Origin: Bacteroidales bacterium
Lineage (GTDB): Bacteria > Bacteroidota > Bacteroidia > Bacteroidales > UBA3663
Length of the DNA: 64,000 nt
NCBI GenBank assembly: GCA_017618715.1
Contig: JAFZTS010000032.1
Span: forward strand, 19,111 to 83,110
Reading direction: 5' to 3'
Part shown: in pieces, positions 151 to 64,000 of the stretch
How positions within the stretch are numbered: position 1 is the first letter of the stretch
Layout: each line of letters opens with the position of its first letter
Made by a program: the position numbers and the translations under genes
The notes under the pieces: generated by a model
The model's input: the letters and a program-made list of their open reading frames with translations, nothing else
What the model was told of the DNA's origin: nothing
Databases searched by the model: none

Positions 151-1809
151 TTACTTTTTGCCATCACTTTTAACATTGGGCATCGGTTTTTCAGGGCATC
201 CGCGTTCCAGATTGAAGCACTTCAAAAGCGATTGAATCTCAAGAGATGAGGGAGCCGCTGTCAGAAGCTTTTGCTTAATCTGTGACTTGGTGGCACGAAA
301 AGCCGCTTCGTTGGAACAACCCGCATAGTACCACAATTGCTTGGGGTCATGCTTGTGTTCACTAATCAGCAGACAAATGGCTTTATGACGAGGAGTCAGA
401 GATAGTTTGTTGAGTTCATCGATAAGATGGCGACGTTTTGCCGTTGACTCACGATAAATAGCTAACAACTCCTCAAAAATGGATGAAGGCCACGAAGCAT
501 TCAAGTCAAGGAGGATAAAACGACGCAACATATACTCTATCTGAACATGCAGAGATTGATTGGTTGTGACCGATTCCTTGAATTGCTGTTTCCATTTCTC
601 TTCTTTGTCTTGGCTTTCAGCAATTTGCCGGTTCATCTTCGCTGTAATACCAGATATGCGTTGCTCAAGTTGTTTCACCCGCTGGATTCGACGCAGCCAA
701 AGTATGAACATAATCAGGATAACAAGTAAAGCAATAGCAACAATGATGATGACGATATTTTCGTAATGCCGTTGCTGTTGTACTTTTTGATACCGGCCTT
801 GTGCTTCAGCGAACTCCGTTCCCAACTTTGACTGACGTTCAATCTTTTGCTGTGCAGCCAACGACTTGCGATAAGTAAGGGCGGAATCAAGCATTCCCAG
901 CTGTTCAAACTGATTGGAACGACGCAAATAGGCCAAGGAAAGAAGTTCAGGCTTATCATCAGAATGAGCAATTATCCAGTTCAACAGGCTGTCCGCCTCT
1001 GCAAAGCGTTTGTGCTCTTGATAATAGTCAACAATGATGGCATAGATGCGGCAACTGTCAGTACGCGTACATTCCTCAAATGGGATTTGGCTCAACAAAA
1101 AGTCACCGCCTTCTTCATCAAGCCCGAAGAAATGATGTAAATGCGCAGAATTGGCATATAATGCTGCGAGTTCTCTTTTGGGGAGATGTGGAGCCAGGAA
1201 AAGAGCCTTATCGGAATAATACAGCGCTGAATCACCATTCTCAAGCTTATAAAAGGAATAAGCCAGATGCATATAGGACAAAGCAATATCCGTGGTATCG
1301 CCAACTTGATAAGCATTTTGCAAAACCTTGCGGAAAAAAGTCGGCGCCAGATAATAATTCCCATTCCGCATATTGATAATAGCAATGCGGTCATTGACCA
1401 CTCCCTTCAAATAAGGTCCAGGGAGCAGATCCACATTCCTCTCGACTTCCAAAAACAACCGATAGGCCTTTGTCATCTCTAAGGTGTAGGCATCCATATC
1501 TGGCTTCAGTTCTTGTGCCCTGTCATGGTGACGAATCCCTTCGAAGAGCATGCATTCGGCTTGTTGCGGTGAGGAGGTCAAGGATGATAGCGTTGTATCT
1601 CCTTTCGCCAGTTCGGGCAGATAATAGCTGGTTGCTACATCGAGGAGTGAATCGCATATTATCTTCTCGGAATGGTATTGTTCGTCCACGTTTTGCAGAG
1701 CCTCCTTTGCACGAAGTTCCGCTTGCCGATCCACGTGACAGGAAGCAAGCAGAATGCCCATAAGGACAATAACTGAAAATGGAAGCACGCAAAGATTGAT
1801 CCTGGACAT
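151..1809 (-). CDS. TPR-repeat membrane protein with C-terminal LuxR/GerE-like HTH (putative transmembrane one-component regulator)
   Basis: 552-aa ORF. It has an N-terminal signal peptide with lipobox-like LLASC, TPR-like helical repeats, a single TM helix (IVIIIVAIALLVILIMFILWL) and a coiled coil. The C-terminal LSLTPRHKAICLLISE...TKSQIKQKL resembles a LuxR-type HTH. Assignment by eye only. Confidence 0.5.
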   Translation of the reverse strand: MSRINLCVLPFSVIVLMGILLASCHVDRQAELRAKEALQNVDEQYHSEKIICDSLLDVATSYYLPELAKGDTTLSSLTSSPQQAECMLFEGIRHHDRAQELKPDMDAYTLEMTKAYRLFLEVERNVDLLPGPYLKGVVNDRIAIINMRNGNYYLAPTFFRKVLQNAYQVGDTTDIALSYMHLAYSFYKLENGDSALYYSDKALFLAPHLPKRELAALYANSAHLHHFFGLDEEGGDFLLSQIPFEECTRTDSCRIYAIIVDYYQEHKRFAEADSLLNWIIAHSDDKPELLSLAYLRRSNQFEQLGMLDSALTYRKSLAAQQKIERQSKLGTEFAEAQGRYQKVQQQRHYENIVIIIVAIALLVILIMFILWLRRIQRVKQLEQRISGITAKMNRQIAESQDKEEKWKQQFKESVTTNQSLHVQIEYMLRRFILLDLNASWPSSIFEELLAIYRESTAKRRHLIDELNKLSLTPRHKAICLLISEHKHDPKQLWYYAGCSNEAAFRATKSQIKQKLLTAAPSSLEIQSLLKCFNLERGCPEKPMPNVKSDGKK

Positions 1810-9100: not shown

Positions 9101-9485
9101 CGCAGTAGGCCTGTCTGTCGCTCGCAACACTTTGCGTGAGGAAAGTCCGGGCTGCATAGGGCTCCATGCCGGTTAATGGCCGGTAGGCGGCGACGTTTAG
9201 GTAACGTAACAGAAAATAACCGCCCCGCAAGGGGTAAGGGTGAAAAGGCGAGGTAAGAGCTCACCGCACACTTGGCAACAAGGCGTGGCAGTACGTCCCA
9301 TGGGTTGTAAGATCATATATACTGGTGTATGGCGCATGTCGTTCGCGATACTGCGTCAGGAAGGGCGGCCCGTCCGAGCCAGGGGGTAGATTGCTAAAGT
9401 GTGTCAGTAATGGCTCACTCAGATCAATGGCAGACACCTGTCACTACGGTGGCAGACACAGAACCCGGCTTATCGGCCTACTGCG
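9101..9485 (+). ncRNA. rnpB: RNase P RNA, bacterial type A
   Basis: Universally conserved GAGGAAAGTCCGGGC lies at 9138..9152, with its P4 partner ACAGAACCCGGCTTA at 9458..9472. The P1 helix is CGCAGTAGGCC (9101..9111) paired with GGCCTACTGCG (9475..9485). A T6 run follows. Confidence 0.93.
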
Positions 9486-9504
9486 TTTTTTATCAAGGCA
9501 TCCA

Positions 9505-15929: not shown

Positions 15930-17528
15930 TTATTCGAAAGCACCCATCTTGAGCATGCTAACCTCCTGCTGGGTGAGGTGACGCCAACGGCCACGTGGCA
16001 GGTTCTTCTTGGTGAGGCCTGCGAAATAAACGCGGTCAAGCTTCACGACGCGATAACCGAGATGCTCGAAGACACGGCGAACGATACGGTTCTTTCCTGA
16101 GTGGATCTCGATGCCCACCTGGTTCTTGTCCTCTTCGTTGGCGTAAGCGATGGCATCGGCGTGGATCGGACCATCGTCGAGCTCAACACCAGCAGCGATG
16201 CGAGCGAGGTCGGTTTCGGCCACGTCCTTGTCAAGCCATACGTGATAGATCTTCTTCTTGATGTACTTGGGATGTGTGAGCTTCGAAGCGAGGTCGCCGT
16301 CATTGGTGAGAAGCAATACACCTGTGGTGTTGCGGTCAAGACGACCAACGGGATAGATGCGCTCGCGGCTTGCATTGCGCACGAGATCCATGACTGTCTG
16401 ACGACCCTGTGGATCATCGCTGGTGGTAACGGTATCCTTCGGTTTGTTGAGAAGTACATAAACCTTACGCTCCAGGCTGACGGGCTGGTCGTTGAAGGTC
16501 ACCTGATCCTTGCGGGTTACCTTGGTGCCAAGCTCGGTCACAACGACGCCATTTACCTTGACCATGCCTGCTGCGATGTGCTCGTCTGCTTCACGACGTG
16601 AGCAGACACCTGCATTGGCAAGGTACTTGTTGAGACGCAGTTCCTCATTCGGATCGACGATAGCCTCAACATATTCTACTGGGCGATGTGGATTGTAACC
16701 TTGTTTGCGATTGAACTTCTGCTTCTGGGGACGACCGTAGCCACCCTGCTGGGGACGGCCATATCCACCCTGCTGGGGACGACCGTAGCCACCCTGCTGG
16801 GGACGGCCATATCCACCCTGCTGGGGACGACCGTAGCCACCTTGCTGGGGACGACCGTAGCCACCCTGCTGAGGACGGCCGTAGCCACCCTGCTGGGGAC
16901 GACTGTAGCCACGGGGCTGATAGCCACCACGAGGCTGGTAGCCGCCACGGGGCTGATAACCCTGCTGATAACCTTCCTGCGGCTGCTGTCCTTCCTGAGG
17001 TTTGCCTTCCTGAGTCTCGTTCTGCGGCTGCTGGAAGCCTTGATTCTCAGTGTAGCGCTGATAACCATTGTTGGGACGCTGTGGACGCTGATAACCCTGA
17101 TAAGCGTTCGGGTCGCCATCCTGATTATAGCGACGATAGTTGTTCTGCGGACGCTGTGGACGCTGGTAACCGGGATAACCACCCTGGGGACGCTGATAAC
17201 CGCCCTGCTGTGGGAAACCTTCCTCACCGGTTTGTGGACGCTGATAACCTTCGCCTTCTTGCATTGGACGCTGGTAGCCACCTCCACGGGGGTAGCCGCC
17301 ACTACGAGGATAACCGCCTCCACGCGGATAATTGCCACGACCATAACCGCTATAGTCGTTAGCGCCGCCGCGTTGATAAGAATTGCGTGTTTGGGGATCG
17401 TAGGTAGCTGCATTACTGAAGCGGCTCTCGCCGATTCGGGGACGACGTTTTGGTGCCTGTGGTGCACCTTCGGGTGCTGCATTACCCTCTTGTGGGGTGT
17501 TTGCCTGTGGGTTTTGATTTTCTTCCAT
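15930..17528 (-). CDS. rluB: RsuA/RluB-family 23S rRNA pseudouridine synthase with long low-complexity N-terminal extension
   Basis: 532-aa ORF. The S4 domain starts near aa 305 (LRLNKYLANAGVCSRREAD) and the catalytic motif is YPVGRLDRNTTGVLLLTNDG. Residues 1-~295 are Gly/Gln/Pro/Tyr/Arg low complexity. Specific assignment to RluB rather than another family member is tentative. Confidence 0.8.
   Translation of the reverse strand: MEENQNPQANTPQEGNAAPEGAPQAPKRRPRIGESRFSNAATYDPQTRNSYQRGGANDYSGYGRGNYPRGGGYPRSGGYPRGGGYQRPMQEGEGYQRPQTGEEGFPQQGGYQRPQGGYPGYQRPQRPQNNYRRYNQDGDPNAYQGYQRPQRPNNGYQRYTENQGFQQPQNETQEGKPQEGQQPQEGYQQGYQPRGGYQPRGGYQPRGYSRPQQGGYGRPQQGGYGRPQQGGYGRPQQGGYGRPQQGGYGRPQQGGYGRPQQGGYGRPQKQKFNRKQGYNPHRPVEYVEAIVDPNEELRLNKYLANAGVCSRREADEHIAAGMVKVNGVVVTELGTKVTRKDQVTFNDQPVSLERKVYVLLNKPKDTVTTSDDPQGRQTVMDLVRNASRERIYPVGRLDRNTTGVLLLTNDGDLASKLTHPKYIKKKIYHVWLDKDVAETDLARIAAGVELDDGPIHADAIAYANEEDKNQVGIEIHSGKNRIVRRVFEHLGYRVVKLDRVYFAGLTKKNLPRGRWRHLTQQEVSMLKMGAFE
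16704..16915 (-). repeat. in-frame 24-bp tandem repeat (about 8 copies) encoding RPQQGGYG
   Basis: On the + strand, CGACCGTAGCCACCCTGCTGGGGA and CGGCCATATCCACCCTGCTGGGGA units are read directly. They encode the octapeptide run at aa ~210-275 of the synthase. Confidence 0.9.
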
Positions 17529-40059: not shown

Positions 40060-41292
40060 ATGATGAAACGTATGATTCTGGCTGCAATGGCAGTGTTAGT
40101 CACACTACCTGCAGCAATTTCGACTATGGCTCAGGACGACGTCTATTACAGCCGTAAGAACAGCCGCAAGCTGACTTACGAATCGACCTCGAACGACGTC
40201 TGGTCCACCAAGGCCAACGACGATTGGGATGTGGACGCCTACAACCGTCGATCGTCTTCGTTCAACACCACACCCGAAATAACTCTGCAAAGCGACAGTC
40301 TGATGCTTTCTGCACGACCCAAGACTGTGCCTGACACCATCTATGTGGTGGAACAGTATTATAACAGCAACCGTATCCGTCGCTTCCACAATCCTCGCTT
40401 CACATGGTGGATGTGGGATCCTTGGTATGACGTTGCTTATTGGGATCCCTACTTCTGGGATTACTGCTACTGGGATCCCTGGTGGTATGTTACTCCCGCC
40501 TTCGGTTTTCACTGGGGCAACTGGTGGTATGGCTGGAACTATGGCTATTACACTGGTTGGTATGGCGGATGGTATTCTCCATTCTATCGTCCTTATCCCC
40601 ACTATTGGGGTCCCTACTGGTATGGCGGCGGTGGTTACCGTAGCAACACAGGCGGACACTATGCCCACTTCAATAGTCATGGACGTAGCAGTTTCCACAG
40701 CGGACGCAGCAGCACACGCACTCCGGGCATGACTTCCCAGCACGGCATTGCCAGCCGCAACGGCACCGGCATCCACAACAGCAACCTGCGCAGCCATGGC
40801 AATCGCGGACGTAATGGCAACAACGTGGCTACACGCGCTGGCAATAGCATTTCTCGTGGCGGCGGTTCACGCGGCACACTGGGCTCCAGCAGTAGGAACA
40901 GCTCACGCGGCTCTGCAATAGGATCCTCTCGCGTTGATGGCAGCACCCACAGCAGCCGCAGTCTCGACAACAGCGGTGCACGTCGCAGTGCAAATGGCAT
41001 GCGCCAGTCCGACACCGGTCGCACAACATCGCGTCAATCTGGCGTTGGTGCCACCCGCAACGGTGCACGCACCAGTGCAGGTGTAAGCAGCAGAGGCACC
41101 GGTACGTATAGAAGTAATGGAAGTTACGTCGGCGGCGGCAGTCACAGCGGCGGTGGCGGCTACAGTGGCGGCAGCACACGCGGTGGCGGCTACAGTGGCG
41201 GCGGCGGTGGCGGCAGTCACAGCAGCGGCGGCGGTGGCGGAGGAAGCCATAGCGGCGGTGGCGGTGGTCACAGCGGCGGTGGTCGCCGATAA
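40060..41292 (+). CDS. secreted Trp/Tyr-rich and Gly/Ser/Arg-rich low-complexity protein (WxxGxW-like repeats)
   Basis: 410-aa ORF with a signal peptide (LPAAISTMAQD). The aromatic core contains three WDP decapeptides plus HWGNWWYGW and HYWGPYWYG. A Ser/Arg/Gly/Asn-rich region follows. The C-terminus is GGGSHSGGGG repeats ending in RR. Confidence 0.7.
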   Translation: MMKRMILAAMAVLVTLPAAISTMAQDDVYYSRKNSRKLTYESTSNDVWSTKANDDWDVDAYNRRSSSFNTTPEITLQSDSLMLSARPKTVPDTIYVVEQYYNSNRIRRFHNPRFTWWMWDPWYDVAYWDPYFWDYCYWDPWWYVTPAFGFHWGNWWYGWNYGYYTGWYGGWYSPFYRPYPHYWGPYWYGGGGYRSNTGGHYAHFNSHGRSSFHSGRSSTRTPGMTSQHGIASRNGTGIHNSNLRSHGNRGRNGNNVATRAGNSISRGGGSRGTLGSSSRNSSRGSAIGSSRVDGSTHSSRSLDNSGARRSANGMRQSDTGRTTSRQSGVGATRNGARTSAGVSSRGTGTYRSNGSYVGGGSHSGGGGYSGGSTRGGGYSGGGGGGSHSSGGGGGGSHSGGGGGHSGGGRR

Positions 41293-62700: not shown

Positions 62701-63384
62701 TTATTGCTTCGGCGAGATAAGTCCAGCCTTTTCGAGGATAGGGAGGATATGTGAAGCCAGCAAACGCTTTGATTCACTTTTCTCAGACCAGTACTCGAAA
62801 TGAAGCTCTTCGTTATCCTTCACTATCTCATGCATCACTTTATCGTCAATGAGCCGTATGGCAATACGTCCTTTGGCATTGGCACCGTTCGAAACGATAT
62901 AGCAGTACTGCTGTTTTACCAAGTTGGCTGCAACCATAGCACCACCGATGGCACCACCGATGGCACCGACAAAGAAGCCTGACACCGCTGCCTCTTTTTG
63001 TGCTTCACGACCAATCTTCCTGTTTACAAAAAGCAGTCCTCCATCATGCATGGGTGTTGCTATCGTATAACCGTTGCCGAAGCGAGTCTTTTCAAATCGC
63101 AAATTGCGACAGTTCACAAACAACGTATCATCTTTCATAATAGCGAAAGCTTCCTTCTTTATTACTTTATCCATTGCCTTATCGCCAGTATGAATAGTGT
63201 AGTCATTTCCGCCCAACCATACTTGACGTTTTTTACTATGACTTTTGTAATAGAAGATGTCCAATGATTCCCATCGTCCATCAAGATAGTCTTCGTAGGA
63301 TTTACAGTAACGGCTTTGCGCATTGGCCGTGATGAAACTCAGCGTGCAAAACGCCAACAATGAGAGCAGAATAATCTTTTTCAT
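62701..63384 (-). CDS. hypothetical secreted/membrane protein with glycine-zipper segment
   Basis: The track start at 63426 overlaps the promoter box. ATG 63384 gives 227 aa with a signal peptide (FITANAQ) and an internal GFFVGAIGGAIGGAMVAANL. No family is recognised. Confidence 0.55.
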   Translation of the reverse strand: MKKIILLSLLAFCTLSFITANAQSRYCKSYEDYLDGRWESLDIFYYKSHSKKRQVWLGGNDYTIHTGDKAMDKVIKKEAFAIMKDDTLFVNCRNLRFEKTRFGNGYTIATPMHDGGLLFVNRKIGREAQKEAAVSGFFVGAIGGAIGGAMVAANLVKQQYCYIVSNGANAKGRIAIRLIDDKVMHEIVKDNEELHFEYWSEKSESKRLLASHILPILEKAGLISPKQ

Positions 63385-63423: not shown

Positions 63424-63431
63424 CAAAGATA
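63424..63431 (-). promoter_or_regulatory. -7 promoter box (TATCTTTG on minus strand)
   Basis: CAAAGATA on the + strand, 40 nt upstream of ATG 63384. Confidence 0.55.
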
Positions 63432-63589
63432 CAGATTATAAATCATCTTAACAAGAAATACACCTATTTTTTACACATTAATAAGAAAAACCAATGAAAA
63501 ATACAACCAGAAAGGCTTTTTTCATACTTATTCTGTATGTTTTTGAGTGCAATACCCACCCCATGAAGGGGAAAACCTATCTATTTTGA

Positions 63590-64000
63590 TGCAAGCATTC
63601 TGTCGGCCGACATAGTGCTTTCTACGAATGGAAAGAGCACTCTGACGCGCGACATAGTGCTTGCTACGACGGAAGTAGCACTCTGACGCGCGAAATAATG
63701 CTTGCTACGGCGGAAGTAGCACTCTGACGCGCGACATAATGCTTGCTACGACGGAAGTAGCACTCTAACGCGCGACATAATGCTTGCTACGGCAGAAGTA
63801 GCACTCTGACGCGCGACATGATGCTTGCTACTATGGAAGTAGCACTCTGACGCGCGACATAATGCTTGCTACGGCGGAAGTAGCACTCTGACGCGCGACA
63901 TAGTGCTTGCTACGACGGAAGTAGCACTCTGACGCGCGACATAGTGCTTGCTACGACGGAAGAAGCACTCTGACGCGCGACATAATGCTTACTACGATTT
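63590..64000. repeat. tandem array of 41-bp hairpin-containing units (9 complete plus partial units, truncated by window end)
   Basis: Units start at 63609 (42 bp), then 63651, 63692, 63733, 63774, 63815, 63856, 63897, 63938 and 63979 (partial). The consensus is GACATARTGCTTGCTACGRCGGAAGTAGCACTCTGACGCGC. Positions 63590..63608 look like a degenerate half unit. Confidence 0.95.

Follow-up and report, generated by a model that had tools for sequence, protein, structure and literature searches.

What is the tandem array of 41-bp, hairpin-forming units that closes a 64,000-nucleotide stretch of Bacteroidales DNA (NCBI GenBank assembly GCA_017618715.1, contig JAFZTS010000032.1, positions 19,111 to 83,110; hereafter the window), and is it read as DNA or as RNA? 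A first-pass annotation, made from the letters of the window alone, had proposed for this array, here called array A, either a protein-binding site akin to the F-plasmid sopC centromere or to iterons, or a transcribed sponge of the CsrB/RsmZ type displaying GGA loops. We find array A to be one member of an apparently undescribed family of ∼430-bp arrays, each comprising about ten palindromic 42-bp modules, scattered in Prevotellaceae genomes. The interpretation that we favor, held with middling confidence, is that of an interspersed mosaic repeat comparable to the repetitive extragenic palindromes (REPs) and bacterial interspersed mosaic elements (BIMEs), evolving by unequal exchange and having a function that we can only infer.

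Tandem Repeats Finder (TRF) reports a single array at 63594-63997, with a score of 638 for 9.8 copies of period 41 at 91% matches and without indels, which outscores every other repeat of the window by far. It totals 404 bp, and the non-coding stretch around it spans 63594-64000, the last 407 bases of the window. The units abut directly, without spacers: unit 1 (63609-63650) has 42 bp, units 2-9 have 41 bp each, and a partial unit 10 (63979-64000) has 22 bp. A 22-nt core, GTAGCACTCTGACGCGCGACAT, occurs nine times at no more than two mismatches, compared with no occurrence in 100 shuffled sequences. Variation is confined to about nine scattered columns, with units 2-9 differing at columns 3, 6, 7, 18-21, 26, and 35; units 2 and 8 are identical, and GGA is kept in eight of nine units. 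A six-frame check of 63590-64000 found no stop-free stretch longer than 52 codons, and past 63426 the window contains no open reading frame (ORF) of at least 60 aa. The first-pass description of a strict-register array that is neither CRISPR, for want of unique spacers, nor a protein repeat was therefore accurate, as was its account of where substitutions fall.

The family to which array A belongs was recognized through a neighboring gene. Other genes near the array on this locus include an esterase, BamD, and rpoZ. In a sister species, a syntenic contig (L018) encodes a homolog 91% identical to the adjoining esterase, and just upstream of that homolog lies a 42-bp array of 9.4 copies and different sequence. 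A 152-aa ORF has been called over that array; that both strands are open and that the frame changes at a 43-bp unit shows it to be spurious. Used as a protein-database probe, its translation retrieved eight similar “proteins,” all of them products of ORF calling over related arrays at other loci. The arrays of loci L034, L039, and L013 (the last retrieved for another purpose) repeat every 42 bp and show a higher-order structure built of two imperfect palindromes. These are module C, with the consensus ATRMCCwwTCTTGGCCAAGAwwGGKYAT (GCATAACCAATCTTGGCCAAGAAAGGTTATGC), and module H, with the consensus AAGCAYTCTGwCGGCCGwCAGAGTGCTT (AAAGCACTCTGTCGGCCGTCAGAGTGCTTT). A family unit consists of one such 26-32-bp imperfect palindrome and a 10-16-bp linker.

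The modules are combined in five ways. Pure C arrays were found at L058 and L061 and a pure H array at L042; H and C alternate with an 84-bp period at L048-L055, L063, and L065; a C-C-H order repeats every 126 bp at L013, L039, L040, L044, L056, and L059; and L034 has a C-C-C-H order of 168 bp. Comparison of flanking sequences resolves the arrays into at least 15 distinct genomic sites in addition to that of the window, several of which are shared by two or more taxa. Complete arrays have a length of 427±36 bp (range 364-503, ∼10.2 units; n = 29, partly non-independent), a range whose upper bound may be censored by short-read assembly and whose lower bound cannot be. An exact 24-nt H core matched 27 metagenome contigs, all 27 of which bear a 42-bp-period array, with no singletons or short arrays among these matches to a single-module probe. 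The flanks of different sites revealed no common leader or tail; the arrays simply start and stop with C or H modules. Scans of viral contigs with the C and H cores gave no matches, and neither the region of arrays A and B nor one H-C array matched plasmid and phage collections (blastn, distant mode). Judging from the nearest named relatives, the hosts are Prevotella/Prevotellaceae, and the record names of those relatives (RUG, Goat_Abomasum, Sheep_Omasum) suggest a ruminant gut origin. We found no described 42-bp Prevotella repeat in the literature and no Rfam entry.

Array A is a pure H array with a GCGC apex and a period 1 bp below the 42 bp of the family. The TGCTAC/GTAGCA hairpin emphasized by the first-pass annotation does exist in its units (TGCTAC-N7-GTAGCA), but as a single-unit fold of -7.6 kcal/mol it does not exceed shuffled sequence in stability (z = -0.36). 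The informative hairpin is the imperfect palindrome AGCACTCTGACGCGCGACATAGTGCT that spans the junction of successive units, which differs from family H cores at 3 of 26 positions (0 expected by chance). A hidden Markov model (HMM) trained on 70 H modules from other loci, with the window left out, matches all ten copies in 63593-63990 at E values from 1e-9 to 3e-3, the next best match in the window having E = 0.66. The best of these is the leading copy at 63594-63619 (E = 1e-9, 34 bits), which keeps the GGCC apex and has three mismatches to family H cores; the nine junction palindromes score between 7e-7 and 3e-3. Furthermore, the L050 and L055 arrays begin with a unit identical to GCAAGCATTCTGTCGGCCG. 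Between the palindromes of array A stand 15-nt linkers, TGCTAC[GACGG]AAGT, the center of which is the variable part. Read in register with the family, the segment that had been called almost invariant is the H palindrome and the variable “loop” the center of the linker. The suspicion of constraint rather than a neutral private satellite was borne out, since the conserved half of the unit is a module common to many loci and taxa.

The closest analog of array A is the pure H array of L042 (10.7 units), in which the palindromes are degraded like those of the window and the linker, ATCTTCTCCAGCATA, is not of the GGA type. The GGA of array A is therefore not kept in its relatives. An exact 22-nt core of array A gave no matches in genome, metagenome, and viral contig collections, and a relaxed 16-mer gave only eight single matches in viral contigs, the level expected by chance. 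Searches of the arrays against Rfam, at gathering and permissive thresholds, gave no match either. On the interpretation that we favor, array A is a recently homogenized pure-H array, the unit of which lost 1 bp and changed its apex from GGCC to GCGC.

Some H modules are flanked by A and T runs in the manner of bidirectional terminators, for example GAAAAAGCAC...GTGCTTTTTCC in L013. H-like hairpins also stand as apparent terminators beside the L050 and L055 arrays. Between array and esterase in L018 (8780-8980) we noted a single H-like hairpin with a T run (GCGCTCTGTCGGGTTCGGCAGAGTGCTTTTT) and a 28-codon hydrophobic ORF (MIAIAFFSTVVLFSIVLRVVAMCMEQRH).

The pairing of the palindrome arms bears on whether these modules act as DNA or RNA. 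We compared Watson-Crick pairs in 78 distinct H and 90 distinct C modules with the number expected if the arms varied independently, and observed 716 pairs for H, where 753 were expected, and 826 for C, where 892 were expected. There was no compensatory covariation at variable positions H 7, 8, 9, 12, and 14 or C 4, 5, 11, and 12. H position 4, counted over 96 modules of a looser H set that admits hybrid CGGCCA/TGGCCG apexes, is A·A in 38, T·T in 30, T·A in 24, and A·T in none; position 7 of the 90 C modules is T·T in 41 and A·A in 37. Because an A·A form read on the opposite strand is a T·T form, the modules are asymmetric elements present in both orientations. All four combinations of H and C orientation occur, and the orientation of H relative to the abutting gene divides the site groups 4 vs 5. 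An A·T at H position 4, although as complementary as T·A, was never seen (0/96); it would create GACGGCCGTC.

Lack of covariation, a conserved mismatch, and occurrence in both orientations together argue against a strand-specific structured RNA. They favor recognition by sequence or structure at the DNA level, or else no selection on pairing at all. An excess of G·T over A·C mismatches, tried as a test of the RNA strand, is found in sense orientation in some locus groups (27:9 in the L050 group) and falls to ∼41:30, not significant, at one representative per site. It was set aside because the orientation of the modules explains it, a T·G accompanied by T·T turning into C·A accompanied by A·A when the complementary strand is read. 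Segments of four units do fold better than shuffled sequences (z = -2.2 and -3.9 for the plus and minus strands of the window, z = -3.5 for L055), as any array of palindromes would.

By crude ORF calls, 17 of 20 partly orthologous loci, equivalent to 11 of 14 independent sites, have the 3' end of a gene no more than 82 bp from the array, and gene 5' ends are 84-640 bp away; where the flanking genes are in tandem, the array always hugs the upstream stop codon. The neighbors, among them housekeeping and glycan-degradation genes, are unrelated, and include GH97, CotH, an MFS transporter, an SMC/RecN-like ATPase, an amylase-family protein, DPP4, GH28, and a serine recombinase. The motif TAnnTTTG, which we take to be the -7 box consensus of Bacteroidota, points toward the array in just 4 of 15 loci and is absent from the interior of all arrays at these 15 loci. 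With no consistent promoter, the arrays do not qualify as stand-alone genes.

Five retrievable contigs of the same species, located through the exact 227-aa DUF6563 protein encoded next to array A, show how the array ends. Unit 10 had been thought to be cut by the window end; in the three contigs that read through (L001, L002, and L004) array A terminates at ...CTACGATTT, and on the 191-kb contig of the species it stops at the window end. Its true start is 63594, where an extra palindrome copy, AGCATTCTGTCGGCCGACATAGTGCT, precedes the first unit. A unique 61-bp spacer, AGGAAGCAAATTTAGAATCGAAACCGGGTTTTCTACGCTTCGATGAATATAAATACACCGC, follows directly, and then a second, degenerate array B of at least seven 41-42-bp units (TGCACTACTTG...TACCATCTCGCCGCAATAT) that are only ∼72% alike. 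Extension of the contig thus disclosed the array end, the spacer, and array B and went no further, as all five contigs end inside array A or B, an indication that the arrays break short-read assemblies. Local alignment of array A with array B was not significant compared with shuffled sequences. A relationship of array B to the L018 unit was marginal (p ∼0.03) and was dropped, given that the C HMM misses array B and that the L018 array has its true ortholog elsewhere (see below).

In the stretch that continues directly past 64000 (L001 1-340, spacer and array B), the spacer contains an inverted repeat, ATCGAA...TTCGAT, and a -7-like box, TAAATTTG, that points at array A and DUF6563. Array B was found only in the species of the window, and some of its units form 8-10-bp hairpins.

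Copy number and unit sequence differ among samples. Array A counts 9.5 units in the window; L001 has 8.5, its unit 6 being a different one, L002 and L004 have 3.5, and L003 shows further unit variants. L002 and L004 equal the window exactly minus units 3-8, and because units 2 and 8 are identical this version could be either a real deletion or an assembly collapse. The end of L003 (1-35) fuses an array A unit to the Illumina adapter AGATCGGAAGAGCACACGTCTGAACTCCAGTCA, which is adapter contamination in a public assembly.

A second locus in the same species gives a view of array turnover. At the left end of the window, the stretch 151-1809 (minus strand) is 96% identical to a gene located 6 kb from the array in L018. 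The 191-kb contig continues past this end (L067), and about 8.5 kb beyond it, ∼70 kb from array A, a pure C array of 42 bp × 8.3 stands immediately after an LRR_5 gene and convergent with clpA. Because its flanks match, this array and not array B is the true ortholog of the L018 array, and the species of the window therefore has at least three arrays at two loci within ∼75 kb. The orthologous arrays are 87% identical between the species and 90% within each array, compared with 96% for their flanks, and the variant ATACCC (for ATAACC) has spread to five of six units in one species and none of the compared units in the other. These observations indicate that the arrays evolve faster than their surroundings, with some concerted evolution, as would be expected from unequal exchange. 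Synteny between the two species breaks ∼35 bp beyond the C array, so arrays of this kind may act as rearrangement substrates. They also persist at orthologous sites across species, for example at the GH97 site, with conserved module order.

How does this family compare with known repeats? REP/BIME, REPIN, and RAYT (REP-associated tyrosine transposase) systems have been described from Enterobacteria and Pseudomonas (PMC3116915, PMC3733652, PMC3479197). REPs are defined as 20-40-bp imperfect palindromes with an unpaired GTAG or CGTC tetranucleotide at one end; they are located predominantly downstream of coding regions, usually as singletons or inverted dimers, with head-to-tail dimers under-represented, and in Bacteroidota only CGTC repeats have been reported and none with GTAG (PMC3733652). 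The arrays described here share with them short imperfect palindromes at many extragenic sites, mostly after genes, two unit types combined with linkers in mosaic clusters, conserved unpaired stem positions, both orientations, and a copy number that varies between strains. BIME-2 elements likewise comprise up to ∼12 Y/Z2 units. With at least 15 sites across taxa, 11 of 14 independent ones 3'-proximal, the family has the multiplicity and the extragenic, mostly downstream location of REPs.

In contrast, there is no sequence similarity, the arrays have a nearly constant length with no singletons found, and they are strictly head-to-tail with a fixed 42-bp period where REPs favor inverted dimers. 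The unpaired tag is lacking as well: the GTAG of array A adjoins the palindrome but pairs with CTAC, other family members have no GTAG (their flanks read AAAGCAC...GTGCTTT), and CGTC occurs only inside the H stem. The arrays are thus outside the REP families as defined.

The nearest Bacteroidota precedent is BrickBuilt of Porphyromonas gingivalis, a spacer-less, intergenic tandem repeat described as a MITE (a transposable element of miniature size with inverted repeats) or minisatellite, present in 19 copies per genome and known to break short-read assemblies (PMC4596501). Its 23-nt units are accompanied by leader and tail subunits with inverted-repeat ends and by internal bidirectional promoters (PMC4596501). 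Both families are specific to a group of Bacteroidota, spacer-less, always intergenic, multi-copy, and assembly-breaking. The present one differs in its 41/42-bp units, its two palindromic modules, and the absence of a detectable leader, tail, or internal promoter motif.

We therefore describe array A as REP/BIME-like and not as a member of the REP families, and infer for the family a recognition factor, a mode of spread, and possibly an effect on transcripts. As a DNA-level interspersed repeat, it would persist in gene-free space just after stop codons. Its imperfect palindromes would be kept by sequence-specific recognition, by a protein or a transposase-like enzyme, and not by compensation of RNA pairs. 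Replication slippage, unequal recombination, and gene conversion could expand, contract, and homogenize the arrays. Read-through from a neighboring gene might additionally turn an array into a chain of stem-loops, which as a by-product could form a 3'-end barrier or terminator.

A number of observations weigh against this interpretation. The mobilizing or recognizing factor is hypothetical: no RAYT gene (IS200/IS605-type Y1 transposase) appears in the gene tables of the fetched loci, and neither a RAYT/HUH transposase nor another recurrent partner gene was found near the arrays in these loci, as opposed to whole genomes. The strictly head-to-tail arrangement with fixed period departs from that usual for REPs. 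A selfish-repeat model explains neither the ∼10-unit length nor the 42-bp period (∼4 helical turns), both of which point to structural constraint; nor does a purely selfish model explain why the arms vary independently. The context counts that place arrays behind genes are drawn from crude ORF calls, in part at orthologous loci. Array A itself sits on the 5' side of its only visible neighbor gene, and array B, which immediately follows it, gave no match to the H or C HMMs.

The same independence of the arms, taken with the period and the length, keeps a phased protein-binding DNA platform as a serious rival, albeit one that we judge unlikely. In this view every 42-bp unit would hold a single site of dyad symmetry, to which a dimeric DNA-binding protein would attach (a nucleoid-associated protein, for example, or a gyrase/IHF-like factor, or one acting as roadblock or insulator), and about ten sites on the same helical face would assemble a nucleoprotein complex. 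A period of 42 bp (41 in the window) is ∼4.0 turns of B-DNA and is kept in pure and mixed arrays; the L046 array mixes 41- and 42-bp units. Total length is tight around ten units, the arms vary as protein-read half-sites would, H position 4 is never “repaired” to A-T (0/96), and module orientation is indifferent to the strand of the neighboring gene. However, none of the arrays has a candidate binding-protein gene linked to it, the existence of two unrelated site types would call for a pair of proteins or for a single one that reads little beyond the GGCC center, and the palindromes of the window are degraded (two mismatches per 11-bp arm), likewise in the pure-H array of L042. The tightness of the length may also owe something to censoring of long arrays by short-read assembly.

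The platform idea retains what was sound in the comparison with sopC and iterons, namely phased protein binding. The F-plasmid sopC centromere consists of twelve 43-bp repeats, each with a SopB-binding inverted repeat, and resembles the arrays in its head-to-tail units of ∼42 bp with an inverted repeat, ∼10-12 units, and ∼4 helical turns. A role as a partition or replication site did not survive: sopC is single-copy, on a plasmid, and beside sopAB, whereas the arrays are chromosomal, occur at 15 or more sites with unrelated neighbors, were not found in plasmid and phage collections, and have no ParB- or Rep-like gene in the fetched loci with gene or Pfam tables. A wider conjecture, on balance rather improbable but worth stating, is that the arrays are unrecognized chromosomal nucleoprotein or single-stranded DNA-recognition elements, in which about ten helically phased imperfect palindromes would be read by a dimeric DNA-binding protein or an HUH-type enzyme, and which would spread as whole ∼430-bp units and serve as substrates for ectopic recombination.

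An RNA-level element, either a 3' untranslated region (UTR) or a multi-hairpin noncoding RNA acting in mRNA stabilization, termination, or titration of an RNA-binding protein, is likewise unlikely. It would account for the adjacency of arrays to gene 3' ends, the favorable folding of four-unit segments (z = -2.2, -3.9, -3.5), the terminator-like A/T runs around some H modules such as those in L013, and the G·T excess in groups such as L050 (27:9). Against this, Watson-Crick pairing does not exceed the independent-arm expectation, the G·T/A·C asymmetry follows module orientation and not consistently one transcript strand, and H orientation splits 4 vs 5 site groups. Moreover, only 4 of 15 loci have a promoter motif directed at the array, and the upstream gene in L050 is separated from the array by a terminator-like hairpin. 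A 3'-UTR stem-loop role is possible as a secondary effect.

The specific proposal of a GGA sponge fails on several of the same counts. Like CsrB/RsmZ RNAs, the arrays present several hairpins in one stretch, and array A, alone in the family, shows GGA in the loop of eight of nine units. Sponge RNAs, however, are promoter-driven and conserve GGA across homologs, whereas in the family the GGA is restricted to the variable, non-conserved linker of array A, there is no consistent promoter and no covariation, and modules occur in either orientation. To our knowledge Bacteroidota have no CsrA.

That array A is a functionless minisatellite, or variable-number tandem repeat, born of local slippage and drifting neutrally, is very improbable. 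Its units are 91% similar, copy number and unit variants differ among samples, and array B with its ∼72% alike units looks to be decaying. Yet the conserved half of the unit recurs in arrays of at least 15 other loci and several taxa, orthologous sites in different species have kept their arrays (for example, the GH97 site), and the 27 single-module probe matches include no short arrays. The minisatellite reading is largely refuted, and could survive only as a claim that the family lacks function.

Guide or antitoxin RNA arrays of known systems (CRISPR, TIGR, or type III toxin-antitoxin of the ToxI kind) share with the family spacer-poor, foldable tandem units of ∼36-42 nt (roughly 36-45 nt overall, without ORFs). 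TIGR units include a pair of variable ∼9-nt spacers placed between boxes C and D and lie near a Nop-domain tas gene (PMC12045711; bioRxiv 10.64898/2026.09.09.750476). A TIGR array was considered because CTGA and ATGATG strings in the array (AUGAUG-like in RNA) superficially recall box D and box C, and was rejected for want of the ∼9-nt variable spacer pairs and of a Nop-domain (Tas) gene in the gene tables of the fetched loci. The likelihood of any such system is negligible, given that spacers are absent, which excludes CRISPR, that ToxI arrays sit directly upstream of a toxin gene while family arrays have unrelated neighbors and no such arrangement, and that the adjacent DUF6563 protein, with a signal-peptide-like N-terminus and its own promoter, is not a ToxN/AbiF-type nuclease.

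The interspersed-repeat interpretation has consequences for a group of dominant, largely uncultured rumen bacteria. If the family is real and Prevotellaceae-specific, it explains recurrent contig breaks in short-read metagenome-assembled genomes and offers a hypervariable marker for strain typing. It would also provide a Bacteroidota counterpart to REP/BIME and REPIN systems, which have been studied almost only in Proteobacteria, where their biology embraces mRNA 3'-end protection, binding of nucleoid-associated proteins and gyrase, and domesticated transposases. The 42-bp period, the ∼10 units, and the one mismatch kept per palindrome would then pose a puzzle of their own. Array A is neither a Csr-like regulator in a phylum thought to be without CsrA nor a hidden plasmid centromere.

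Features of array A, its surroundings, and the second array locus (window coordinates unless a contig is named)
Feature	Position	Strand	Remarks
Leading H-type imperfect palindrome AGCATTCTGTCGGCCGACATAGTGCT	63594..63619		GGCC apex; copy nearest the family consensus
Array A, 9.5 head-to-tail units (42 bp, 8 × 41 bp, 22-bp terminal partial)	63609..64000		TRF, unit list, same-species contigs
Nine junction-spanning H palindromes AGCACTCTGAC-GCGC-GACATAGTGCT	63636..63989		26 nt each, 41 bp apart (63636-63661, 63677-63702, ... 63964-63989); two internal mismatches each
DUF6563 gene, 227 aa (Pfam PF20201)	62701..63384	-	exact protein on six contigs; 5' end toward array A, 225 bp off
-7 promoter box TATCTTTG	63424..63431	-	read from sequence; ∼40 nt upstream of the DUF6563 start codon
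31-codon ORF	63494..63589	+	not called as a gene on any of five same-species contigs
Pure C array, 42 bp × 8.3	L067 16402-16749		∼8.5 kb beyond the left end of the window, ∼70 kb from array A

Array A is intergenic, with the 5' end of the DUF6563 gene on one side and a far flank that breaks off in array B. The DUF6563 protein has, by eye, an N-terminal hydrophobic stretch resembling a signal peptide. The -7 box of its gene places array A upstream of the promoter and outside the 5' UTR; the TATCTTTGCA motif likewise precedes genes in L018, L039, L013, and L052. The 31-codon ORF between this box and the array is probably not a gene. Homologs of DUF6563 elsewhere are not syntenic and have no 41-bp arrays, with the exception of L013, where a family array lies 1.7 kb away.

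A link between the modules and the ends of IS605/TnpB elements was considered and rejected, the flanks of a TnpB-like gene on a related contig (L020) being unrelated to the modules. That locus (L020 11402-13125) comprises a 462-aa Cas12f1-like_TNB (TnpB-like) gene followed by a small CRISPR-like array of four 36-nt repeats (GATGTAACTGATATGCATTTGAAAGGTTAATCCAAC) with unique spacers of ∼28-30 nt, and looks like a miniature type V locus.

Elsewhere in the window, a class A bacterial RNase P RNA at 9102-9488 (237 bits) identifies the stretch as chromosomal. Tandem repeats at 16725-16958 (24 bp) and 17273-17331 (18 bp) are coding. They specify QQGGYGRP and GGYQPR repeats within a 532-aa protein (15930-17528, minus strand), in its N-terminal half; its C-terminal half looks by eye like an RluB-type pseudouridine synthase. 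A 410-aa protein (40060-41292, plus strand) begins with what looks like a signal peptide and ends in a Gly/Ser-rich C-terminal tail (GGGSHSGGGG...) specified by GGC-rich repeats at 41130-41282.

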